Positions 1 to 20,484 are shown, counted from the stretch's first letter. The stretch is DNA of 64,000 nt from an uncultured Methylomirabilota bacterium (GCA_963705305.1 OY970067.1:2048001-2112000), one strand, 5' to 3'. Numbers and translations are program-made. Notes: generated from the letters alone by a model not told the origin.

Positions 1-1234
1 GCTCGCCTATTCGATGCTGTTTACCGGCTTCGTGTCGCTCCATTTCCTGCACCCGGAAGTTCCCATCAACATCGTTCCCCAGCGGGTGTTCGGGGGGGTG
101 GATAATTTCATTCTGCTGTGCATCCCGTTCTTCATCCTGGCGGGCGATCTGATGTCCCTGACCGCCTTGTTCGACCAGCTCATCGACGTGGCCAACGCCA
201 TCATTGGCCGGGTGAAGGGGGCCCTCTCGCACATCGTGATCGTGGTCGCCATGTTCTTCGCGGGGATCACGGGGGCGGCGGTCGCCGACACCTCGGCGGT
301 GGGGAGCCTGTTAATTCCAGCCATGGTGAAGCAGGGCTACCGCAAGCAGTACGCCACGGCGGTCGTGGTGGTGGCGTCCACCATCGGGGTGATCATTCCG
401 CCCAGCAACCTGATGATCGTGGCGGCGCTGGCCACCACGACCTCGGTGGCGGCCCTGCTCCTGGGCGGGATCATTCCGGGGGTCCTGGCGGCGATGGCCA
501 TGCTGGTCTGGAGCATCTACTACGGGATCACCCGCGGCTTCCCCGCCTCGCCCCCGATGACCTGGATGGATCGCGTCCGGGTCTTTGCGCGCAGCTTCCC
601 GGCCCTGGGGATCCCGGTGATCCTGATGGGCGGCATCCTGGCCGGGATCGTCACGCCGACGGAGGCCGCCGACGTGTCGATCTTCTATGCCCTGATCGTA
701 GGGCCAATCCTTCTCCGCCGCTTTCCCACCATGAAGCAATTCTATGAGAGCTCACTCACCGTGGTCAGCCGCGTCTCCGCCGTGATGGCCTGCGTGGGCG
801 CCTCCCTGGTCCTGGGATGGATCTTCGCCATCTCCGAGGTGCCGGATGCGGTGGGGCATTTTATCACCTCCATCACCACGAATTCCGTTCTGATCACTGC
901 CGGCATGCTGGTGACCTACCTGATCGTCGGCTGCTTCATGGATCCTATCCCGGCCATCCTGATCTTCTCGCCCATCTTTCAACCGCTGGCGGAATCCATC
1001 GGCATCTCCCCGGTGCACTTCGCCGTGGTCATGGTGTTCGGGCTGACGATCGGACTGGCCACGCCCCCAGTCGGATCGTGCCTGTATGTCGGTGCGGCCA
1101 TCTCGGGCCTGCGGATCGATGAGTTCACCATGGATATGATCCCGTACATCCTGGCGATGACCGTGATCCTCTTTGTCATCGCGTATGCGCCGGGCTTCGT
1201 GATGTGGATTCCCAATCTGGCGTTGGGGAAGTGA
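1..1234 (+). CDS. dctM: TRAP transporter large permease (DctM), 5'-truncated by window edge
   Basis: Highly hydrophobic, with DctM motifs PFFILAG, FFAGITGAAVAD, IIPPS, TPTEAA, TPPVG. Frame is open to the window start. Confidence 0.93.
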   Translation, partial: LAYSMLFTGFVSLHFLHPEVPINIVPQRVFGGVDNFILLCIPFFILAGDLMSLTALFDQLIDVANAIIGRVKGALSHIVIVVAMFFAGITGAAVADTSAVGSLLIPAMVKQGYRKQYATAVVVVASTIGVIIPPSNLMIVAALATTTSVAALLLGGIIPGVLAAMAMLVWSIYYGITRGFPASPPMTWMDRVRVFARSFPALGIPVILMGGILAGIVTPTEAADVSIFYALIVGPILLRRFPTMKQFYESSLTVVSRVSAVMACVGASLVLGWIFAISEVPDAVGHFITSITTNSVLITAGMLVTYLIVGCFMDPIPAILIFSPIFQPLAESIGISPVHFAVVMVFGLTIGLATPPVGSCLYVGAAISGLRIDEFTMDMIPYILAMTVILFVIAYAPGFVMWIPNLALGK

Positions 1235-1332: not shown

Positions 1333-2331
1333 ATGGGTGCGAAGCGTGGAGCCTGGTGGGCGCTGGTGATCGCCATTGTCATGTCGTTCGTGCTGGCAGG
1401 GATTGCCCAGGCTGGCGAGGTGGTCCTGAAACTCGGGACCAGCCAGCCCCCTAAGGGCGGATACCTCGGCGACACTCCGAAAGTCTTCGCCGACGCCATC
1501 GAGCAGGCGACCAAGGGGGCAGTGAAGGTCAAAGTATTCTATTCCGGGTCGCTGAGCGCCAACGAGCGGGAGCTCTTGGAGATGGCCCAAAGCGGGGCCA
1601 CCGATTTCGGGATCGGGGCCACGACCTACGTGCTGGGCTGGGCGCCCGCCTTCAAGGTCTTCGACCTCCCGTACCTTTTCCAGGGGGTCGAGCACTTCAA
1701 GAGGGTCGTGCAGGGGCCGGTGGGCGAGACGCTGGCCAAGCAGGAGGAGGTGCACGGGGTGGTGCAGCTTGCCTACATCCTGCCGGGAGTCCGGAGCATC
1801 TTCAACAATGTCCGGCCCATCAACAAGCTGGAGGACGCCAAGGGCCTGAAGATCCGGAGCATGCAGAGCCCCGTGTACCTTGACATGTTCAAGGCCATGG
1901 GAATGCTGCCGACGGCGATGCCGGCCTCGGAGCTGTACACCTCCCTCCAGACGGGTGTGGTGGACGCCGGCGAGAACGACCCGGCCAGCGTGGTCAGCTG
2001 GGGGTGGATTGACGTGATCAAGTACTATTCTCTCGACGAGCACTCCATCTCGTGCAACGTGCTGATCATGAATAAGAAGCGGTTCGACAGCTTCTCGCCG
2101 GAGATTCAGAAGGCCATCCTCCAGGCGGGGAAGACAGCCGAAAACTATCAGTTGGACTACATCCAAAAAGCGACCGCGGAAAGCCTGGAGAAGATCAGGG
2201 CCAAGGGAGTCAAGGTCAACACCATCCCCGACAAGAAGCCCTTCCAGGATGCCGTCAAGCACATCATCGCCCAGTACGAGCCGGAGATCGGCCACAACCT
2301 GGTCCAGATGGTGCGGGACGCCGCGAAGTAG
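1333..2331 (+). CDS. dctP: TRAP transporter substrate-binding protein (DctP)
   Basis: Signal peptide; FDLPYLF, GLKIRSM, ELYTSLQTGVVDAGEN motifs; AGGAGG RBS. Confidence 0.93.
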   Translation: MGAKRGAWWALVIAIVMSFVLAGIAQAGEVVLKLGTSQPPKGGYLGDTPKVFADAIEQATKGAVKVKVFYSGSLSANERELLEMAQSGATDFGIGATTYVLGWAPAFKVFDLPYLFQGVEHFKRVVQGPVGETLAKQEEVHGVVQLAYILPGVRSIFNNVRPINKLEDAKGLKIRSMQSPVYLDMFKAMGMLPTAMPASELYTSLQTGVVDAGENDPASVVSWGWIDVIKYYSLDEHSISCNVLIMNKKRFDSFSPEIQKAILQAGKTAENYQLDYIQKATAESLEKIRAKGVKVNTIPDKKPFQDAVKHIIAQYEPEIGHNLVQMVRDAAK

Positions 2332-2430
2332 CGGCCGAGTGTCTTGGCGCCCGGGGGTGGGCCGGCCGCGCCGGCCCCACCCCCGGGCGCTCTGCGGAGG
2401 GGCGCCTGCGGCCCCTGGTGTTGCATCGCC

Positions 2431-4809
2431 ATGATCACATCAGCGGTTGCGCTCGACCGGACGACCCGCCTGCGGGGCCGGCTCTTGTCGCACGAGCCGT
2501 CGATCTGCCACGAGCGGGTGGCCATCGTCACCCAGTGCTACGACGAGCTGGGACAGTCCCTCCCGCCCGTCCGCCTGCGGGCCAGGGCCCTGGCCGCCGC
2601 CCTGGATGGGATGACCATCTTCATCGGGCCCGATGAGCTGATCGTCGGGAACCAGGCCTCCCGGCCGCGCGCGGCCCCGGTCTTCCCCGAATACTCCTGG
2701 GAATGGATCCTGGACGAGCTGGGCACCCTCCCCCGGCGGACAGCCGACCGGTTTGCCGTTTCCCCCGAGACGGCCGAGGCCTTGCGATCCCTGCTTCCGC
2801 GTTGGCGGGGCCGGGCCCTTCGCGATCGGGCGGCGGCGGCCATGCCGGAGGAGGTCCTGCGGGCGCAGGAGGGCCTGGTCTTTCTTCTGACCAGCATGGG
2901 CTGCGGCGTGGGGCACCTGGCCCCCGACTACTCCCGCGTGCTTGCCCGCGGACTGGCGGGACTGGCGGACGCGGCCCAATCCATGCTGAACACCCTGGAC
3001 CTTACCGAGCCGGCCTCCCTGAGGCGGCGGGATTTTTGCCTGGCCGCGGTGGAGGTCTGCCAGGCGGCGATCCGCTTTGCCCACCGCTACGCAGAGCTGG
3101 CCCTTCGCCTGGCGGGAAGCGAGGCGAATGCGGCCAGGCGGGCGGAGCTCCAGGAGATCGCGCGCGTCTGCCGGAAGGTGCCGGCCCAGCCGGCCGCGAC
3201 GTTTCACGAGGCCCTCCAATCCTTCTGGTTCGTCCACCTCATCATCCAGATCGAGGCCAACGGCCACTCCATCTCGCCGGGCCGGTTCGATCAGTACATG
3301 GCCCCCTCCTATGCGGCCGACCTCCAGACGGGGCGGCTGGACCGTGAACGGGCTCTGGAGCTGCTGGACTGCCTCTGGATCAAGTTCAACGAGATCATGA
3401 AGCTGCGGGACCGGACCGCCTCCATCGGGTTCGGGGGATACCCCCTGTTTCAGAACCTCATCGTCGGGGGCCAGACGGCGGACGGGCGGGACGCCACCAA
3501 CGACCTGTCCTTCCTTTGCCTGGAGGCCACCCGCCGGACCCGCCTGCCCCAGCCCTCGCTCTCGGTGCGGGTGCACGCCGGAAGCCCCCCGCCCTTCCTG
3601 AAGGCGGCCGCCGCGCTGGCCCGCGAGGGGCTGGGCATGCCCGCCTTCTTCAACGACGAGATCATCGTCCCGCTGCTCCAGCGGATGGGCGCCGGGTTGG
3701 AGGAGGCCCGCGGGTACGCCGAGGTGGGCTGCGTCGAGCCCCAGGTGCCCGGCCGCACGAACGGGTACTATCCGGCCGGCTTCCTCAATCTGGGGAAGGT
3801 GGTGAGCCTGGCCCTGCACAACGGCACCGATCCGGTCAGCGGCCGGCAGCTTGGCCCGCGCGACGCCGCGTTCGGGGGGTTTGCCCGCTACGAGGACGTG
3901 CGCGCGGCCCTGGACCGGCAGCTGGAGCATTTCATCCGGCTGCTGGTGGCCGCGGATAACGTCTTGGACGCCGCCCACGGGGCCCTGGCGCCCAATCCCT
4001 TCGTCTCGCTTGTGGTGGACGACTGCCTGACGCGCGGCCTGTGCTACGAAGAGGGCGGGGCCGTCCACAACTACACGGCGCCCAACAGCGTCGGTCTGGC
4101 CAACGCCGCCGACGCCCTGATGGCGGTCAAGCGGCTAGTATTCCAGGAGCGAAAAGTGGGGATGCCGGAGCTGCTGCAGGCACTGGCGGAGGATTTCGCC
4201 GGTCGGGAGGCCCTGCGCCAGATGCTGCTCCACAAGGCCCCCAAGTACGGCAACGACGAGGACGAAGTGGACGCCATCGCCCGGGAACTGGCCAGCCAGA
4301 TCCTTCGAGGATTCAAGCGATTCCGCAACGTCCGCGGGGGTCGGTTCGAGCCGGGCCTGCAGAGCATCTCGGCGCATGCCCTGTTCCGGGACGCCGTGGG
4401 CGCCACGCCGGACGGGCGCACGGCGCGGATGCTCTTGGCCGACGGGGGCATCTCCCCGGCGCAGGGGCGGGATCGCCGCGGCCCGACCGCCGTGGTCAAG
4501 TCCGCCGCCAAGCTGGACCATCTGGAGTCCTCCAACGGGACGCTGCTCAATATCAAATTGAGCCCGCAGTCGGTCGCCGGGGAGACCGGGCTGGAAAACC
4601 TGGCGGCCCTCATCCGGACCTACTTCCAGCTGGGGGGGCAACACGTCCAGTTCAACATCGTCAGCTCCGACGTCTTGCGCGAGGCGCAGGCGCATCCCGA
4701 AGAGCATCGGGATCTGGTCGTCCGGGTGGCCGGCTTCAGCGTGCTGTTCACCACCATCGACCGGGTGCTCCAAGAGGACATCATCGAGCGGACCGAGCAT
4801 GTTCTCTGA
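2431..4809 (+). CDS. Glycyl radical enzyme, glycerol/diol dehydratase-like (PFL2 family)
   Basis: Cys loop GCVEP, glycyl loop RVAGFS, ANGHSISPGRFDQY, FGGYP. Start placed at ATG 2431 rather than TTG 2344. Confidence 0.93.
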   Translation: MITSAVALDRTTRLRGRLLSHEPSICHERVAIVTQCYDELGQSLPPVRLRARALAAALDGMTIFIGPDELIVGNQASRPRAAPVFPEYSWEWILDELGTLPRRTADRFAVSPETAEALRSLLPRWRGRALRDRAAAAMPEEVLRAQEGLVFLLTSMGCGVGHLAPDYSRVLARGLAGLADAAQSMLNTLDLTEPASLRRRDFCLAAVEVCQAAIRFAHRYAELALRLAGSEANAARRAELQEIARVCRKVPAQPAATFHEALQSFWFVHLIIQIEANGHSISPGRFDQYMAPSYAADLQTGRLDRERALELLDCLWIKFNEIMKLRDRTASIGFGGYPLFQNLIVGGQTADGRDATNDLSFLCLEATRRTRLPQPSLSVRVHAGSPPPFLKAAAALAREGLGMPAFFNDEIIVPLLQRMGAGLEEARGYAEVGCVEPQVPGRTNGYYPAGFLNLGKVVSLALHNGTDPVSGRQLGPRDAAFGGFARYEDVRAALDRQLEHFIRLLVAADNVLDAAHGALAPNPFVSLVVDDCLTRGLCYEEGGAVHNYTAPNSVGLANAADALMAVKRLVFQERKVGMPELLQALAEDFAGREALRQMLLHKAPKYGNDEDEVDAIARELASQILRGFKRFRNVRGGRFEPGLQSISAHALFRDAVGATPDGRTARMLLADGGISPAQGRDRRGPTAVVKSAAKLDHLESSNGTLLNIKLSPQSVAGETGLENLAALIRTYFQLGGQHVQFNIVSSDVLREAQAHPEEHRDLVVRVAGFSVLFTTIDRVLQEDIIERTEHVL

Positions 4810-5749
4810 AGCCCGGCAATCCGATCCCGCACCCGCCCAGACGCCCGACGCCGGCATCGTCTTCGACATCCAGCGCTTCTCCGTCCACGACGGCCCGGGC
4901 ATCCGCACGCTCGTCTTCCTCAAGGGATGCCCCCTGTCGTGCGAGTGGTGTGCCAATCCGGAGGGCCGACAGCCCGGACCGGAGATCCTCTTCGATCCCG
5001 CCAGGTGCGTGGGCTGCCGGGTCTGCGAGGGGGTCTGCACCAACGGCGCGGCCCTGGTGGCGGAGGGGGGGACGCCAGTGTTCGAGCGGGGACGCTGCCT
5101 GGCCTGCGGCGCCTGCGTGGAGGTCTGTCCCTCGGGGGCCCGCGCCCTGGCGGGCCGGTCCATGTCCGTCCAGACCGTGCTGGCGGAGGTGCTGAAGGAC
5201 GAGCCCTTCTACCGAAACTCCGGCGGCGGCCTCACGTTGGGGGGCGGCGAGCCGCTGGCGCAGCCCGATTTCGCGGCGGGGATCCTCCGGGCGTCCCGCG
5301 ATCGCGCGATCCACACGGCCGTGGAGACCTCTGGGCATGTTCCCTGGCCCCGCCTCCGGCAGGCGCTCCCCTGGACGGACCTGTTCCTCTATGATCTCAA
5401 GCATCCGGATCCGGATGCGCATCGGGCGCACACCGGCGGCGATGTCGGCCTCGTGATGGGAAACCTGGATCGCCTGCTCGAGGCCGGGGCCCGGGTCTGG
5501 CCGCGGGTGGCCGTGATTCCGGGGTTCAACGACGATCCGGCGGTCTTCGGCGAACTGGTCCGGCAGGTCGCCGGGTTGGGACTGGGCGAGATCCACCTGC
5601 TGCCGTACCATCGGCTGGGACAGGCCAAGTACCGGCTCCTGGGCCGGGAGGAAGTGTTCCGCGGGCGGGAGGCGATCCGCGAGGGGCGGCTGGAGGAGCT
5701 GGCCGCGCTGGCTCGTGCGGCGGGACTGGCTGTGACGGTGGGGGGATAG
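4799..5749 (+). CDS. Glycyl-radical activating enzyme (radical SAM with ferredoxin insert)
   Basis: HDGPGIRT, GCPLSCEWC (CxxxCxxC), two CxxCxxCxxxC motifs, GGEP; overlaps the GRE stop. Confidence 0.95.
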   Translation: MFSEARQSDPAPAQTPDAGIVFDIQRFSVHDGPGIRTLVFLKGCPLSCEWCANPEGRQPGPEILFDPARCVGCRVCEGVCTNGAALVAEGGTPVFERGRCLACGACVEVCPSGARALAGRSMSVQTVLAEVLKDEPFYRNSGGGLTLGGGEPLAQPDFAAGILRASRDRAIHTAVETSGHVPWPRLRQALPWTDLFLYDLKHPDPDAHRAHTGGDVGLVMGNLDRLLEAGARVWPRVAVIPGFNDDPAVFGELVRQVAGLGLGEIHLLPYHRLGQAKYRLLGREEVFRGREAIREGRLEELAALARAAGLAVTVGG

Positions 5750-5870: not shown

Positions 5871-6629
5871 ATGGGCTGGACAGGCAAGGTGGCACTGGTC
5901 ACGGGTGGGGGCTCCGGGATCGGACGCTCCACGTGCGAGCTGTTCGCGGCCGGCGGCGGGACCGTGGTGGCGGCGGATCTGAACGAGCGGGCGGCCGCCG
6001 CGATAGTCGAATCGATCCGGCAGCGGGGCGGCCGCGCCGAGGCCGTGGGGACCGATGTGACCCGCTGGGAGGACGTGCAGACGGTCGTGGAGAGGGCGCG
6101 GAGGATCTCGGGCCGGCTGGACGTCGTCATCAACTGTGCCGGGATCCTGCGGATTCACACGATCGAGGAGACCTCCGAAGCGGAATGGCAGCAGGTGCTC
6201 GAGATCAACCTCACCGGCGCGTTTCTGGTCACCAAGGCCGCGATGCGGGTGATGCGAGAGCAGGGGGGCGGCTCCATCGTCCACATCGCCTCGCGCATGG
6301 CCCTGCGGGTGAAAGAGGGCCATGCGGCGTATGCCGCTGCCAAGGCCGGCGTGATGCAGCTCACGGAGATGGCCGCCCTGGAGGGGGCCCGTGACGGCAT
6401 CCGGGTCAACTGCGTCTGCCCCGGGTTCGTGGACACTCCCATGGTGCGGAACTCCGGCCCCGCCGACGACGTGGAGGCCCAGTTCGCCGCCTGGGCCAAG
6501 ATCTGCCCGTTGGGCCGCGCCGCGGTGCCCGGGGACATCGCCCGGGCCATGCTGTTCCTGGCCTCGGACGATGCCGCGTTCATTACCGGCGTGGCCCTGC
6601 CCGTGGACGGTGGGCGGACGATTCTCTGA
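5871..6629 (+). CDS. Short-chain dehydrogenase/reductase (SDR)
   Basis: TGGGSGIG, NCAG, YAAAK, IRVNCVCPG, VDGG. Confidence 0.93.
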   Translation: MGWTGKVALVTGGGSGIGRSTCELFAAGGGTVVAADLNERAAAAIVESIRQRGGRAEAVGTDVTRWEDVQTVVERARRISGRLDVVINCAGILRIHTIEETSEAEWQQVLEINLTGAFLVTKAAMRVMREQGGGSIVHIASRMALRVKEGHAAYAAAKAGVMQLTEMAALEGARDGIRVNCVCPGFVDTPMVRNSGPADDVEAQFAAWAKICPLGRAAVPGDIARAMLFLASDDAAFITGVALPVDGGRTIL

Positions 6630-6680: not shown

Positions 6681-7583
6681 ATGCCGAACACACCGCTGGG
6701 CTTCCTCGGATTGGGCGTCATGGGCGGGCCCATGGCCCGGAATCTCCTCAAGGCCGGCTATCCGGTGACCGGCTATGATCCCGACGCCAACCGGATGCAG
6801 CTTTTCACGCGGGCGGGCGGGAAGGCCGTGGCCTCCGTCGAGGCGGTCGGGCGGGCAGGAGACGTCGTGTTCCTCTCCCTCCCCACCGGCGACGTGGTGC
6901 GGCGGACAGTCACCGGCGAGGGGGGGCTGCTCTCGGCCATGCCGTCGGGCGCGCTCATCGCGGACCTCAGCACCACGGAGCCGAAGGTGGCCCAGGACTG
7001 CGCAACAGCCTGCGCGGATCGCGGCATCACGTTCCTGGACGCGCCGGTCAGCGGCGGGGAACAGGGAGCCATCGACGCCAGCCTGTCCATCATGGTGGGC
7101 GGCGAGGCGGCGGGGTTTGCCCGCTGCCAGCCCCTGCTCGCCTGCGTGGGCAAGTCAGTCGTCCACATGGGGGGCAGCGGACTGGGCCAGGCGACCAAGC
7201 TCCTCAACAACATGATCGTGGCGGCCGGATTTGCCGCGGTCTGCGAGGCGTGGGGGTTGGCGGCCAAGGTTGGCCTGGACCCGGCCACGCTGCATCAGGC
7301 CATCAAGGGCGGCTGGGCCGGCTCGCGTGTCATGGAGGAGACGGTCCCCCGTCTCCTGGCCCGGAATTTCGTCCCCGGCGGGACCGTGGACATCATGACC
7401 AAGGACGTGGGATATGCCCTGAACATGGCGCGGTCCCTGGATGTGCCCGTGCCGGTAACGGCCCTGGCCCACGAGCTTTTCCGCATGGTGAAGGCGCAGG
7501 GGCAGGGACCCAAGGCCCAGCCCATCCTAATCAGCCTGTGGGAGCAGTGGACGGGGGTGCAGGTCGGAGGTCACCAGCCCTGA
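6681..7583 (+). CDS. NAD(P)-dependent beta-hydroxyacid dehydrogenase (GarR/GlxR/HIBADH family)
   Basis: GFLGLGVMG, DAPVSGG, catalytic KLLNN, KDVG. Confidence 0.9.
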   Translation: MPNTPLGFLGLGVMGGPMARNLLKAGYPVTGYDPDANRMQLFTRAGGKAVASVEAVGRAGDVVFLSLPTGDVVRRTVTGEGGLLSAMPSGALIADLSTTEPKVAQDCATACADRGITFLDAPVSGGEQGAIDASLSIMVGGEAAGFARCQPLLACVGKSVVHMGGSGLGQATKLLNNMIVAAGFAAVCEAWGLAAKVGLDPATLHQAIKGGWAGSRVMEETVPRLLARNFVPGGTVDIMTKDVGYALNMARSLDVPVPVTALAHELFRMVKAQGQGPKAQPILISLWEQWTGVQVGGHQP

Positions 7584-7611: not shown

Positions 7612-7893
7612 ATGGAGCAGACGCGACGTCAAGAGATCAGAAGCCTGTTATGCCAGCGCCTCTGGACCCTGGACGAGCTGGCGGCGCGGTACGTCGTGGC
7701 CAAGCGGATCATCATAAACGATCTGGAGCATATCGCCCGCTCCGTGGCGCCGCGCCAGAGACTCGAGATCCTGCCGCCGGTGTGCCGCCAGTGCGGTTTC
7801 CGGTTCAAGGATCGGTCGCGCTTTTCGGATCCATCCCGCTGTCCGCAGTGCAAGAACGAACACCTCGGCTCGCAACAGTTCCGCATCGTGTGA
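7612..7893 (+). CDS. Small HTH + Zn-ribbon predicted transcriptional regulator
   Basis: N-terminal HTH (TRRQEI...DLEHIARS), then CxxC (CRQCGF) and CxxC (CPQC). Confidence 0.75.
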   Translation: MEQTRRQEIRSLLCQRLWTLDELAARYVVAKRIIINDLEHIARSVAPRQRLEILPPVCRQCGFRFKDRSRFSDPSRCPQCKNEHLGSQQFRIV

Positions 7894-10272: not shown

Positions 10273-10902
10273 GTGAGTCATCGCAGCGGCTCTGACATTC
10301 GTCTGATCATCTGTGACTTCGGGGGGGTTATTTGCAGCTTCGATTACGACCTCTTCTGTGCGCGAATGGCGCAGCGGACTGGGCGGACGCTGCCCGAGAT
10401 CCGCGATGCGGCTTTCGCCGTCGGCTTGCAGCGGGAATTCGAATCCGGCATGCTTTCCGGGCGCGAGTACCATCGCGCGGTGATGGCCGGTCTGGGCCAG
10501 GATATTCCGTACGAAGAGTTCTGCCGGATGTACGGCGACATCTTCACTCCGATCCCTGGGACCGGCGAGTTGCTTCGGAGGCTTCGCGAACGCTACACGC
10601 TGTACCTTCTCTCGGACACGAACGAAATCCACTTCGACTACGTCTGGAAAACCCAGCCGGCTCTCCAGCTCTTTGCAGAGTTCATCCTCTCGTATCGGAT
10701 AGGAGCGATGAAGCCAGATCCGGCCATCTATCGCGAGGCGCTGCGGCGCTCCGGCTTACCCGCCGAGGCCTGCGTGTTCGTGGATGACCGTCCGGCCAAT
10801 GTGGAAGGGGCGGAACGGGCCGGGATCCGCGCTGTGGTGTTCGAGTCGGCCCAGCAGATGGCGAGGAAGCTGTGCCGCGCGGGAGTGGAGCTTCCCGCAT
10901 GA
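10273..10902 (+). CDS. HAD-superfamily phosphatase (YihX-like)
   Basis: DFGGV, LLSDTN, MKPDP, FVDD motifs. Confidence 0.9.
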   Translation: MSHRSGSDIRLIICDFGGVICSFDYDLFCARMAQRTGRTLPEIRDAAFAVGLQREFESGMLSGREYHRAVMAGLGQDIPYEEFCRMYGDIFTPIPGTGELLRRLRERYTLYLLSDTNEIHFDYVWKTQPALQLFAEFILSYRIGAMKPDPAIYREALRRSGLPAEACVFVDDRPANVEGAERAGIRAVVFESAQQMARKLCRAGVELPA

Positions 10903-18151: not shown

Positions 18152-18364
18152 ATGTCTGAACCACTTCTCACTCCACTTGAAGCTGCTCAATTCCTCGGGC
18201 TGAAAGTCAGCACGATCAGAAAGTGGACGTTTGAGCGCAAGCTACCCTATATCAAGCTTGGCGCGCGCGCCGTGCGCTTCCGCAGGTGTGACCTCGAAAA
18301 GCTGGTCCGCCGAGGCGAACGCCCGGCCCTCCGGCCCGTCAGTGAGAGCGGGGCTGAGCGATGA
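18152..18364 (+). CDS. Excisionase-family HTH DNA-binding protein
   Basis: LLTPLEAAQFLGLKVSTIRKW...LPYIKLGARAVRFRRCDL; GGAGG RBS. Confidence 0.88.
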   Translation: MSEPLLTPLEAAQFLGLKVSTIRKWTFERKLPYIKLGARAVRFRRCDLEKLVRRGERPALRPVSESGAER

Positions 18365-20484
18365 GCGCCACGGACACGGCGACCGCGAGCACGCGGGACG
18401 CCGCAATTGAACAAGTCCGGCGAGCCCGGTTCGTGGTACCAGTCCCCCGCGGTCGCAAGGGCCCCGTCATTGACGGGTGGCAGCATCTTCGGCTCGCCGA
18501 GGCCGATCTGTCTGGGTACTTCGGAAACGGGGAGAACATCGGCATCATCTTGGGCGAGGCCTCCAAGATGGTGGACGTGGACCTTGACTCTCCCGAGGCC
18601 CTCGCCGTAGCAGACTGTTTCCTGCCGAAGACCGGCATGATCCACGGCCGGGCATCCAAGCCGCGGTCACACAGATGGTATGTACCCACCCCCATTCCAG
18701 CGACCAGGCAGTATAGGGACGTGGACAACGCCATGCTAGTGGAGCTGCGGTCCACTGGAGGGCAGACACTCATTCCCCCCAGCGTCAACCCGTCGGGCGA
18801 GGCGGTCACTTGGGACGCCGACGGCGACCCGGAGACGGTGGACGCCGCCCCCCTGCAATCGTCAGTCGCCCGCGTCGCGGCCGTGGCGATCTTGGCGCGA
18901 CACTGGCCGGCACGCGGGAGCAGGCACGACGCCTACAACGCGCTGGCTGGCTTCCTGCTCCGAGCGGGATGGACTGCCGACCAGACCATGCTGGTGATTG
19001 AGGCCCTCACCGTCGCCACCCACGATGACGAGGGCCGAGACCGGCTGGCGTCTGTACGGTCCACGATGAAGACGCTGGAGGCGGATCGGAAGGCCACGGG
19101 TGGGCCGACGCTGGCCGACCTGCTCACCGACGGGCAGCGGGTGCTGGAGCGGGTGTCGGAGTGGCTGGGCATCCCCCGGAGTGCCCAGGATGCCCCGGGC
19201 CGAGGCTCCCCTATACCTACTTGGCCCACCCTGCCGGTCGAGGCCCTCTACGGCCTGGCCGGCGAGATCGTGACGGCAGTTAACCCATACACGGAGGCTG
19301 ATCCGGTCGGGGTGCTGGTCAACATCCTGGTGGCGTTCGGCAACATCGCCGGCCGGGGCCCGGGCTTCCTGGTGGAATCGACGCGACACCATCTGAATCT
19401 CTTCGCCGTCCTGGTCGGGCCGACGGCGCAAGGGCGGAAGGGGCAGAGCTGGTCCACCCCTCGGAGGCTGTGTCGCCTGGTGGATGAGGAGTGGGAGCGG
19501 TCAAGAGTGGTGGAGGGGCTGAGCACGGGCGAGGGGCTGATCCATGCCGTCCGGGATCCGGTCTATCGGACCGAGACCGATAAGAAGACGGGCACCACGC
19601 AGGACGTGCTGGTGGACGCGGGCGTGGAAGACAAGCGCCTACTGGCGATCGAAGGGGAATTCGCGCAAGTGCTAAAGGTCGGGACGCGGGAGGGTAACAT
19701 CCTGTCGCCGGTCTTGCGGCGGGCGTGGGACGGCGCCGATCCCCTCGCCCCCCTGACAAAGACCTCGCCGATCCGGGCGACGGGCGCCCATATCTCCATC
19801 GTCGGCCACATCACGCAGGAAGAGCTACTCCGCCACCTGACCGAGACCGAGGCGGCGAACGGCTGGTGCAACCGTTTCCTGTGGGTGCTGGTGCGCCGGT
19901 CGAAATTCCTGCCTGACGGCGAGCCGGTGCCCGCGTCCATCATCGACAGGCTGAGCAAGCGGCTGTCGGTCGCGGTGGACTACGCCCATATCATCAGCGA
20001 CCTCACCCGGGACACCGAGGCCACCGATCTGTGGCGGGCGATCTACCCGCGCCTATCGACCCCCAAGCCGGGGCTGGTCGGGGCGATCCTCGGTCGGGCC
20101 GAGGCCCAGGTTATGCGGCTGGCGTGCCTCTACGCGCTACTGGACGCATCGCCCACCGTGCGCGGCCCTCACCTACGGGCGGCACTGGCCTTGTGGGACT
20201 ACATGGACATGTCCGCAGTGTATATCTTCGGTGGAAAGCTCGGTGATTGGGTCGCTGACGAGGCCCTAGAGGCGATCCGGGCTGCGGGACAGGAGGGGCT
20301 GACCGAGACTGATCTACACCATGTCTTTGGGCGCCACCAGTCGAGCGGACGGCTAGGGGTAGCGCTGCAATCGCTGGCCGGTCTGGGGCTGATCGTGCCC
20401 AAGGTGGAGCAGACAGGCGGGCGACCCCGGACACGCTGGACAGTCCCGGGCTGCGAAAAAAGCGAAGTAAGCGCAGAAAGGTAG
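18361..20484 (+). CDS. Bifunctional primase/polymerase (Prim-Pol) fused to DUF3987-like P-loop helicase domain
   Basis: PVPRGRKGP, NIG, DVDLD, IPPSV (Prim-Pol); GPTAQGRKG Walker-A-like motif, STGEGL, NGWCNRF; ATGA overlap with xis. Confidence 0.85.
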   Translation: MSATDTATASTRDAAIEQVRRARFVVPVPRGRKGPVIDGWQHLRLAEADLSGYFGNGENIGIILGEASKMVDVDLDSPEALAVADCFLPKTGMIHGRASKPRSHRWYVPTPIPATRQYRDVDNAMLVELRSTGGQTLIPPSVNPSGEAVTWDADGDPETVDAAPLQSSVARVAAVAILARHWPARGSRHDAYNALAGFLLRAGWTADQTMLVIEALTVATHDDEGRDRLASVRSTMKTLEADRKATGGPTLADLLTDGQRVLERVSEWLGIPRSAQDAPGRGSPIPTWPTLPVEALYGLAGEIVTAVNPYTEADPVGVLVNILVAFGNIAGRGPGFLVESTRHHLNLFAVLVGPTAQGRKGQSWSTPRRLCRLVDEEWERSRVVEGLSTGEGLIHAVRDPVYRTETDKKTGTTQDVLVDAGVEDKRLLAIEGEFAQVLKVGTREGNILSPVLRRAWDGADPLAPLTKTSPIRATGAHISIVGHITQEELLRHLTETEAANGWCNRFLWVLVRRSKFLPDGEPVPASIIDRLSKRLSVAVDYAHIISDLTRDTEATDLWRAIYPRLSTPKPGLVGAILGRAEAQVMRLACLYALLDASPTVRGPHLRAALALWDYMDMSAVYIFGGKLGDWVADEALEAIRAAGQEGLTETDLHHVFGRHQSSGRLGVALQSLAGLGLIVPKVEQTGGRPRTRWTVPGCEKSEVSAER

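Follow-up and report, generated by a model that had tools for sequence, protein, structure and literature searches.

Which substrate does a glycyl radical enzyme (GRE) accept when it keeps the catalytic residues of the glycerol and propanediol dehydratases and replaces much of the rest of their pocket? This question is raised by a gene at positions 2431 to 4809 of a 64,000-nucleotide stretch of DNA (the window) from an uncultured Methylomirabilota bacterium (GCA_963705305.1, OY970067.1:2048001-2112000). A first-pass annotation had described the product as a diol-dehydratase-like GRE with a remodelled active site, a radical eliminase acting on a different substrate and a candidate for new GRE chemistry. 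On balance, our analysis favours a radical 1,2-dehydratase of a carboxylated polyol, whose oxo-acid product would be handled by an adjacent short-chain dehydrogenase/reductase (SDR) and a beta-hydroxyacid dehydrogenase; we consider this reading probable, though by a good way not certain. The fold, motifs, clade and gene linkage of the enzyme are shown here; from them we infer what it catalyses, on which class of substrate, and what the neighbouring genes do.

The enzyme and its active-site motifs

The open reading frame (ORF) at 2431-4809 on the plus strand is stop-free and encodes 792 amino acids. In the ORF scan the longest frame began with a TTG at 2344. The ATG at 2431 was used as the start; homologues start near it (99% coverage), and a start at the TTG would cross a very stable hairpin in the spacer between the GRE gene and the preceding gene, dctP. 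The protein matches the Pfam families PFL-like (711 bits) and Gly_radical (116 bits, cut-off 22). Among PDB chains, the Clostridium butyricum glycerol dehydratase (GD; 1R8W) aligned end to end, residues 8-792 of the query with 10-787 of the chain, at 736 bits and an E value of 4e-220, so the match is not due to chance. The propanediol dehydratases (PD) 9RCO and 5I2A scored 731 and 721 bits, respectively; the titles returned by Foldseek give 9RCO-9RCR as 1,2-propanediol dehydratase. An AlphaFold2 model computed with 79 clade sequences as input had a mean pLDDT of 93.5 and superposed on PD and GD with a TM score of 0.96 and a root mean square deviation of 1.3-1.4 Å, at 44-45% identity. As modeled, the enzyme has the ten-stranded barrel of the pyruvate formate-lyase (PFL)-like fold, a central Cys loop and a C-terminal RVxG radical domain. 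Active sites of GREs are built from barrel strands and the Gly and Cys loops, as described in part of a 2026 review (PMC13450708). The motifs of the enzyme are as follows.

2431..4809, plus strand: GRE of the PFL2/glycerol-dehydratase subfamily, "QSxSAH" clade (by family models, alignments and tree)
2914..2916, plus strand: His162, in CGVGH (residues 158-162), aligned with GD His164
3265..3270, plus strand: His279-Ser280 of NGHS, in NGHSISP (residues 277-283), common to GD and PD (His281-Ser282 in GD numbering)
Residues 334-338 of the GRE: FGGYP
3730..3738, plus strand: Cys434-Val-Glu436 of the Cys loop GCVEP (residues 433-437), predicted thiyl radical site and catalytic base, CXE motif
3766..3774, plus strand: Tyr446-Tyr447-Pro448, in GYYP (residues 445-448), in place of Trp-His-Asp of GD and PD
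4360..4377, plus strand: beta-8 strand Gln644-Ser-Ile-Ser-Ala-His649, in PGLQSISAH (residues 641-649), in place of Tyr-Pro-x-Ser-x-Asn of GD and PD
4723..4740, plus strand: glycyl radical motif RVAGFS (residues 765-770) with Gly768; RVAGYS in GD/PD-like sequences

In the HMMER residue alignments, the GD counterparts NGVGH (CGVGH in the query), NGHSISP, FGGYP, GCVEP and RVAGYS (RVAGFS in the query) were kept, GWHD of GD stood opposite GYYP, and PGLYPSSIN opposite PGLQSISAH. All the motifs read in the first-pass annotation are present at the expected places, and the correspondences to GD (DhaB1) that it had proposed, including these two replacements, were borne out. Both solved PDs (5I2A and 9RCO) have GWHD and G[LI]YPVSAN, as GD does. 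Among 79 clade sequences His279 is invariant and Ser280 at least 90% conserved. We take Asp447, Tyr640 and Ser642 of GD (GWHD, beta-8 Tyr) to be substrate-binding residues in GD and PD. In the portion of the review that treats GD, Cys433, Glu435 and His164 are given as active-site residues, the CXE motif is defined, and His164 is proposed as the acid that protonates the leaving hydroxyl (PMC13450708).

Family models place the protein broadly and no further. The broad subfamily model TIGR01774 was the only one passed (788 bits, cut-off 678). The models that were failed are PRK09983 (NF007437, which tests for YbiW/PflD; 640.5 bits against a cut-off of 1109), HypD NF043068 (636 against 1100), HpfG NF048009 (580 against 1000), CutC TIGR04394 (557 against 1050), HpsG NF048011 (544 against 1000), indoleacetate decarboxylase (412 against 1100), HPAD (322 against 1150) and PFL (140 against 994). 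A curated equivalog model for GD or PD was not among the matches listed. By features of GD and PD, the equivalents of His164 and NGHS are present, and WHD and the beta-8 Tyr-Pro are replaced by YYP and QS.

The Cys-x-Glu signature of the GRE 1,2-eliminases is present as Cys434-Val-Glu436. According to the relevant part of the review (PMC13450708), the characterised C-O eliminases are GD, PD, HpfG, HypD, HpyG and HpzG, the C-N eliminase is CutC, the C-S eliminases are IslA/IseG and HpsG, and the characterised isomerases are HplG, YbiW and PflD; about a dozen GRE eliminases have a known function, and entire clades lack validation. Full-text literature searches turned up no paper on GREs that act on sugar acids, cyclitol acids or comparable carboxylates brought in by a tripartite ATP-independent periplasmic (TRAP) importer; a paper on the isethionate C-S lyase, which was returned, concerns the sulfonate case that is already known. 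The existence of many further uncharacterised GRE families tempers any surprise at this clade. As worded, the earlier proposal of new GRE chemistry is not supported. The kept residues (Cys-x-Glu, His162 and His279-Ser280) suggest a familiar reaction, the 1,2-elimination of water. Judging from these residues, the chemistry is probably familiar and the substrate class new.

A clade with its own pocket and an anion importer

Among the 120 nearest clusters at 90% identity, 88 carry Q[ST]xSxH on beta-8, and the other 32 carry WHD and YPxSxN. The Q[ST]xSxH set extends to sequences of 50% identity; among its members are proteins named from Marispirochaeta aestuarii, Oscillibacter and Limnochordia. 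A FastTree phylogeny was built from 187 sequences (database hits of at least 700 amino acids plus GREs translated from the fetched loci, with identical ones removed; PflD and YbiW are absent from this set) and rooted on six more distant GREs. One group, with a Shimodaira-Hasegawa-like support of 92, comprises 101 motif-bearing sequences and one C-terminally truncated sequence. Its sister consists of 79 WHD/YP (GD/PD-like) sequences, so that the query lies outside the GD/PD clade.

Thirteen of the 792 columns split the two clades at at least 90% on each side. Given as clade/GD-PD residue, these are 153 L/V, 331 S/T, 407 F/Y, 432 V/I, 447 Y/H, 450 G/A, 552 N/Q, 644 Q/Y, 645 S/P, 649 H/N, 650 A/V, 769 F/Y and 771 V/A. 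The Cys-loop hairpin, the beta-8 strand and the Gly loop together account for nine of them; six fall in the two segments that the first-pass annotation had singled out, and three more in the Cys-loop and Gly-loop motifs. Column 447 holds Y in 99% of the clade and H in 100% of the GD/PD-like sequences. Y447, Q644 and S645 are conserved at 96-100% across the 101 clade sequences, and WHD/YP at 99-100% across the 79 GD/PD-like ones. By these alignments, the pocket replacements are a fixed clade feature and not drift. The triad at 446-448 differs by subclade (YYP, YYT, FYN, YYC, MYS or LYS), which puts P, T, N, C or S at the position of GD Asp447; variation by subclade fits a specificity position.

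A profile search of a library of 50%-identity representatives found the clade motif, by regular expression, in 1 of the best 150 matches, the library being too coarse to give the size of the clade; the top-ranked 41 of those 150, once aligned, were 33-47% identical and mostly belonged to other GRE families. The ESM Atlas returned generic GRE clusters only. The clade loci come from metagenome-assembled genomes (MAGs) labelled Methylomirabilia, Spirochaetota, Bacillota and Oscillibacter.

The clade is also set apart by its gene neighbourhood. With TRAP linkage defined as TRAP genes within 9 kb of the GRE, such genes were found in 27 of 43 clade loci (20 genome and 23 metagenome loci), in 0 of 54 GD/PD-like loci and in 5 of 60 loci of other GRE types. 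An activase gene lies within 5 kb of the GRE in 28 of the 43 clade loci. The earlier suggestion of a radical eliminase with a different substrate fits this link with an anion importer, as it fits the kept catalytic residues, the replaced distal pocket, the position in a sister clade and the failed equivalog models. As a separate observation, a more distant GRE type (42-46% identity, with neither motif set) also stands beside TRAP genes in five loci (L055, L065, L076, L111 and L112).

In and around the window, the genes follow one another on one strand. Directly upstream of the large TRAP permease gene dctM, and outside the window, lie a LacI-family regulator gene and dctQ, and the dctM start is 59 nucleotides before the window (L009:11942). 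The intergenic distances, in nucleotides, are 3 (LacI to dctQ), 18 (to dctM), 98 (to dctP), 99 (to the GRE), -11 (to the activase), 121 (to the SDR), 51 (to a 3-hydroxyisobutyrate dehydrogenase (HIBADH)-like gene) and 28 (to a gene for a PF0610-like small protein).

1..1234, plus strand: TRAP large permease DctM (Pfam DctM 313 bits, TIGR00786 337 bits)
1333..2331, plus strand: TRAP solute-binding protein DctP (Pfam DctP 241 bits)
2350..2387, plus strand: GC-rich inverted repeat in the DctP-GRE spacer, read from the sequence, without a U tract
4799..5749, plus strand: radical SAM GRE activase (TIGR02494 329 bits, cut-off 174)
5871..6629, plus strand: SDR (by Pfam and NCBIfam; PDB matches uninformative on specificity)
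6681..7583, plus strand: beta-hydroxyacid dehydrogenase, like HIBADH or tartronate semialdehyde reductase (NF008592 280.6 bits, cut-off 397)
7612..7893, plus strand: PF0610-like winged-helix and Zn-ribbon protein of 93 amino acids (by Pfam)

The activase start overlaps the GRE stop by 11 nucleotides, and the activase has CPLSCEWC (CX3CX2C) and two ferredoxin-like Cys clusters. The spacer at 2332-2430 folds at -70.5 kcal/mol (z -3.0 against shuffles); from its sequence, the hairpin may be an intra-operon mRNA stem-loop, a stabiliser or an attenuator setting the ratio of binding protein to enzyme. A promoter and terminator scan gave counts at or below those expected from shuffled sequence.

The nearest solved chain to DctP is 4X8R, at 175 bits, compared with 107 bits for the isethionate binder 8T9T. 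In the alignment of DctP with 4P47, its R154, R175 and N215 fall on Arg152, Arg173 and Asn213, which bind the anion. The ligand of 4X8R is glucuronate, and the Arg/Arg/Asn set of TRAP binding proteins holds carboxylates, the typical TRAP substrates, and also sulfonates, according to part of a paper on the isethionate system (PMC11668362). DctP orthologues 53-79% identical to that of the window stand beside GREs of the YYP, FYN and YYC subclades (MAGs labelled Methylomirabilia, Spirochaetota and Bacillota); in the MYS/LYS subclade (Oscillibacter and Lachnospiraceae) DctP is 25-30% identical. DctP is likely to be the receptor for the GRE substrate.

The beta-hydroxyacid dehydrogenase has as its nearest solved relatives 2-hydroxymethylglutarate dehydrogenase 3CKY (210 bits) and tartronate semialdehyde reductase 1VPD (208 bits). 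Enzymes of the HIBADH type interconvert 3-hydroxy acids and their semialdehydes, and this protein is a candidate reductase of an aldehyde product. The PF0610-like gene also follows the HIBADH-like gene in six other loci (L010, L011, L092, L104, L107 and L157), and its product is possibly a regulator.

At L009:6415-9879, 5.6 to 2.1 kb upstream of the window start, lie genes for a YdiF/FadX-like CoA-transferase, a MaoC hydratase (L009:8211-8648) and an acyl-CoA dehydrogenase (ACAD) whose best model is the acryloyl-CoA reductase AcrC (471 bits, cut-off 640). In L011, L092 and L093 these CoA-transferase, MaoC and ACAD genes lead, on the same strand, straight into the TRAP-GRE genes. Relatives at 70% identity or more (L011, L092, L093, L094, L107 and L157) repeat the set of CoA-transferase, MaoC, ACAD, SDR, DctQMP, GRE, activase, HIBADH and PF0610; the place of the SDR in this order varies.

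More distant clade members have other neighbours. The spirochaete locus L018 adds a LacI regulator, an aldo-keto reductase and a LarA-type 2-hydroxyacid racemase. In the low-GC metagenome loci L099-L103 and L121 the GRE belongs to a larger conserved operon with KduI/IolB, two epimerase-like proteins of the xylose-isomerase fold and a pyruvate dehydrogenase-like 2-oxoacid dehydrogenase (E1alpha, E1beta and E2); an NPN-dependent isomerase there matches "group 22" (524 bits against 400), and one of the xylose-isomerase-fold proteins is IolO-like (270 bits against 300). This gene content suggests a multi-step pathway for a keto-sugar-acid. Oscillibacter-type loci have AraC, GFO/IDH/MocA, KduI/IolB and RpiB. 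Read across the loci, the core consists of importer, GRE and activase, with a variable periphery that, from its gene families, belongs to hydroxy-acid or sugar-acid chemistry.

Several further observations concern the surroundings. A TfrA-like flavoprotein and a second LacI regulator are encoded further upstream of the CoA-transferase group. A HAD-family hydrolase at 10273-10902 of the window recurs at 60-61% identity in L010 and L011, again downstream of the operon, which is probably shared synteny rather than pathway membership. About 11 kb downstream of the operon, at 18361-20484 of the window, is a gene for a 707-residue Prim-Pol and DUF3987 protein, a type common in integrated mobile elements. 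Outside the window, the same genome encodes a second GRE (G000:C1:2960401-2965050; L170:10401-15050) of 804 amino acids, 44% identical to the first and with the Cys loop GCVEH. It is of an uncharacterised type, directly follows a DDE transposase gene, and has its own activase, an Ldh_2-family dehydrogenase and a sigma-54 activator nearby.

Proposed reaction, substrate and competing explanations

Because Gly768, Cys434, Glu436, His162 and NGHS are kept, the familiar 1,2-dehydration is the most economical reading of the enzyme. The overlapping activase would install the radical on Gly768, from which it would move to Cys434, and Cys434 would abstract a hydrogen atom at one of the carbinol carbons of the substrate. 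Glu436 would deprotonate the hydroxyl of that carbinol, the vicinal hydroxyl, held by His162 and His279-Ser280 as in GD and PD, would be lost as water, and the product radical would regain a hydrogen to give an aldehyde or a ketone. The substrate would be neither glycerol nor propanediol; it would be an anionic polyol, most likely a carboxylate, such as a sugar acid, glycerate, a C4 acid or another small dihydroxy acid, imported by the co-transcribed TRAP system DctQMP under a LacI-type regulator. The anionic, probably carboxylated, nature of the polyol is suggested by the PflD-like features of the pocket together with the TRAP link. The clade has given up the acidic Asp of GWHD, and the new Tyr446, Tyr447, Gln644 and Ser645 sit in the segments that hold a carboxylate in HypD; these four residues may hold the distal acidic part of the substrate. 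The resulting oxo-acid would go to the adjacent SDR and beta-hydroxyacid dehydrogenase for reduction or oxidation, and in the lineage of the window the product possibly passes on to the CoA-transferase, the MaoC hydratase and the acyl-CoA dehydrogenase.

The size of the acid can be argued in two directions. A small acid, as in a conversion of glycerate to malonate semialdehyde, would suit the modest size of the substitutions, the beta-hydroxyacid dehydrogenase, and the LarA-type racemases with the AcrC-like CoA module; some LarA-type racemases prefer glycerate, as reported in part of one paper (PMC11770544). A C6 acid would suit the uronate-like binding protein, the KduI/IolB and IolO-like neighbours and the PflD-like distal features. 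From context alone we also considered a cyclitol acid of the quinate/shikimate type (in view of AP_endonuc_2, GFO/IDH/MocA and the CoA-transferase, ACAD, MaoC and SDR genes) and 2-keto-3-deoxygluconate. The neighbour sets vary between subclades and so do not single out one compound. In its boldest specific version for the lineage of the window, the GRE would dehydrate glycerate to malonate semialdehyde, the beta-hydroxyacid dehydrogenase would reduce this to 3-hydroxypropionate, and the CoA-transferase, MaoC hydratase and AcrC-like acyl-CoA dehydrogenase would take it to propionyl-CoA.

A number of points weigh against a carboxylated-polyol dehydratase. His and NGHS-like motifs occur in many other uncharacterised GRE families and so are no proof of diol chemistry, and the substrate contacts assigned to the clade-specific residues rest on alignment and on the structural literature for GD and PD. 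The clade shares the beta-8 SAH and an ADGG insertion with the isomerase PflD. There is no TRAP gene in 16 of the 43 clade loci; in 13 of these the sequence extends less than 2 kb beyond the GRE on one side or both. L022 ends its contig at the GRE, with 7.5 kb upstream free of TRAP genes, and in L102 the 4.1 kb upstream are taken up by a 2-oxoacid dehydrogenase, again with no TRAP gene. L012, with 7 kb upstream and 10 kb downstream, has an ABC transporter in place of TRAP, together with a LarA-type racemase and GntR, and L109, cut at the GRE start, has AcnX and an ABC transporter in the 6.3 kb downstream. HIBADH orthologues (76-79% identity) were found in 8 of the 43 clade loci and SDR orthologues (above 50% identity) in 4; as both occur only in close relatives of at least 70% identity, their presence could reflect shared ancestry and not function. 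The differing neighbour sets mean that the clade may hold several specificities, or that the GRE substrate may be an intermediate instead of the imported compound itself.

Three other explanations were weighed. The enzyme could be a GRE isomerase of the YbiW/PflD type, whose substrate would be a cyclic or anhydro sugar acid; cleavage of a ring or chain C-O bond adjacent to the carbinol radical would give an isomeric keto-acid without net loss of water. E. coli PflD (8YJO) and the clade both have S.SAH and ADGG.SP, which are missing in GD and both PDs; the substrates of PflD and YbiW are anionic six-carbon sugar derivatives and their CXE motif is kept; KduI/IolB, IolO-like and RpiB genes lie near several subclades; and the closest solved relatives of DctP hold pyranose uronates. 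We nevertheless regard an isomerase as unlikely, given that GD and PD are closer to the query (44-45% identity, 721-736 bits) than PflD and YbiW are (39-40%, 567-585 bits), that NGHS (NASS in PflD) and the equivalent of GD His164 are kept, and that the sister group is the GD/PD-like clade, in a tree without PflD or YbiW sequences. Quite unlikely, in our estimate, is a sulfonate enzyme, that is, a dehydratase or sulfite-lyase for dihydroxypropanesulfonate (DHPS) or a related hydroxy-sulfonate, like HpfG, HpsG and IslA with their TRAP importers. The arrangement of TRAP, GRE and activase genes is that of the isethionate and DHPS systems, the TRAP Arg/Arg/Asn set also binds sulfonate, the HIBADH-like protein has some resemblance to sulfolactaldehyde reductase (NF012005 172 bits, cut-off 348; 6SM7 133 bits), and the second-best model of the activase is the HpsH activase (306 bits, cut-off 430). 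Against this stand the low HpfG and HpsG scores (580 and 544 bits, both against a cut-off of 1000), the 31-32% identity to the IslA, IseG and HpsG structures, the presence of Cys158 and Gln644, by numbering offset, where the two-Arg anchor would be expected, the closer relation of DctP to uronate binders than to the isethionate binder, and the sugar-acid genes that neighbour the GRE in other loci.

The third explanation is an ordinary glycerol or 1,2-propanediol dehydratase, with the pocket differences as neutral drift and the TRAP genes as unrelated neighbours. GD and PD are indeed the best PDB matches, all catalytic residues are common to them and the query, and GD/PD membership lies beyond a test by hidden Markov model cut-off, with no such model among the matches listed. 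But the replaced residues are invariant or nearly so in 101 sequences down to 50% identity, the 79 GD/PD-like sequences are as invariant in the other state, the two clades are reciprocally separate in the tree, and TRAP linkage stands at 27 of 43 against 0 of 54 loci. Moreover, scanning ORFs around the GRE against Pfam gave no match to a microcompartment shell family, and glycerol and propanediol are neutral and not expected as TRAP substrates. We consider this explanation very improbable.

A dehydratase of a carboxylated polyol would have consequences beyond this locus. The clade is well defined and is widespread in MAGs from anoxic soil and sediment and of termite-gut type and gut origin, and the glycerol and propanediol dehydratases used in industry have their nearest relatives in it; its cognate binding protein DctP offers a built-in handle for finding the substrate. 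More tentatively, as a possibility that we would rate somewhat below even, the clade would be the first glycyl radical dehydratase for carboxylated polyols and would provide anaerobes with a B12-independent deoxygenation of sugar acids or small dihydroxy acids. If the substrate is a sugar acid or glycerate, the fermentation of carbohydrate acids would gain a new radical route, and the enzyme could serve as a biocatalyst in the deoxygenation of bio-based acids. A strictly anaerobic metabolism would then also be indicated for the lineage of the window, the nearest relatives of which in this analysis are MAGs labelled Methylomirabilia. A route from glycerate to propionyl-CoA, if real, would be an unrecognised fermentative electron sink.

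Comparison with known systems

DhaB1 of C. butyricum (1R8W/1R9D) shares with the enzyme its fold, its length, 44% identity, a TM score of 0.96, an adjacent activase, the Gly radical motif, Cys-x-Glu, the His164 equivalent, NGHSISP and FGGYP. The query differs in having GYYP for GWHD, GLQSISAH for GLYPSSIN and RVAGFS for RVAGYS, an ADGG loop one residue longer, the coupling to a TRAP importer and a LacI regulator, and its place in a sister clade. The same pocket substitutions distinguish it from the PDs (Roseburia inulinivorans 5I2A/5I2G; 9RCO-9RCR), to which it is 44-45% identical with a deviation of 1.3-1.4 Å and the same catalytic residues; TRAP genes stand beside the GRE in 27 of 43 clade loci and in none of the 54 GD/PD-like loci.

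With HpfG/HpsG and IslA/IseG the operon shares its logic of anion importer, GRE and activase, as well as CXE eliminase chemistry. The Hpf system presumably also has an aldehyde-handling dehydrogenase. The query is 31-32% identical to the structures of IslA, IseG and HpsG. The TRAP importer and binding protein of the isethionate system are described in the part of PMC11668362 cited above, and the review section on C-S lyases has these enzymes anchor the sulfonate by two Arg and a Gln (PMC13450708). The Arg positions correspond to Cys158 and Gln644 of the query by numbering offset, without a residue alignment, so the Arg/Gln/Arg anchor is apparently absent from it.

HypD (6VXC/6VXE) holds the carboxylate of its substrate by the uncharged Ser334, Tyr450 (after the Cys loop) and Thr645 (beta-8), and these post-Cys-loop and beta-8 segments are the regions remodelled in the query. 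The two enzymes are 35% identical, and the substrate of HypD is an amino acid, not a diol; by numbering match without alignment, Asn277 and Phe334 of the query are at or next to HypD Asp278 and Ser334, and neither of these HypD residues is thus seen in the query.

YbiW and PflD (8ID7, 8YJO and 8ID0) are more distant than GD and PD. Their phosphate-ester substrate comes from the phosphotransferase system, whereas the importer of the query is of the TRAP type. According to part of the review, they act on anionic six-carbon sugar derivatives (anhydro-hexitol-6-phosphates) and keep CXE (PMC13450708). At the NGHS and GYYP positions of the query, PflD reads NASS and GLHD. Both proteins have S.SAH on beta-8 and an ADGG.SP loop longer by one residue, features that are missing in GD and both PDs. 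In terms of aligned residues, the pocket of the clade looks GD/PD-like near the reacting carbons and PflD-like further out.

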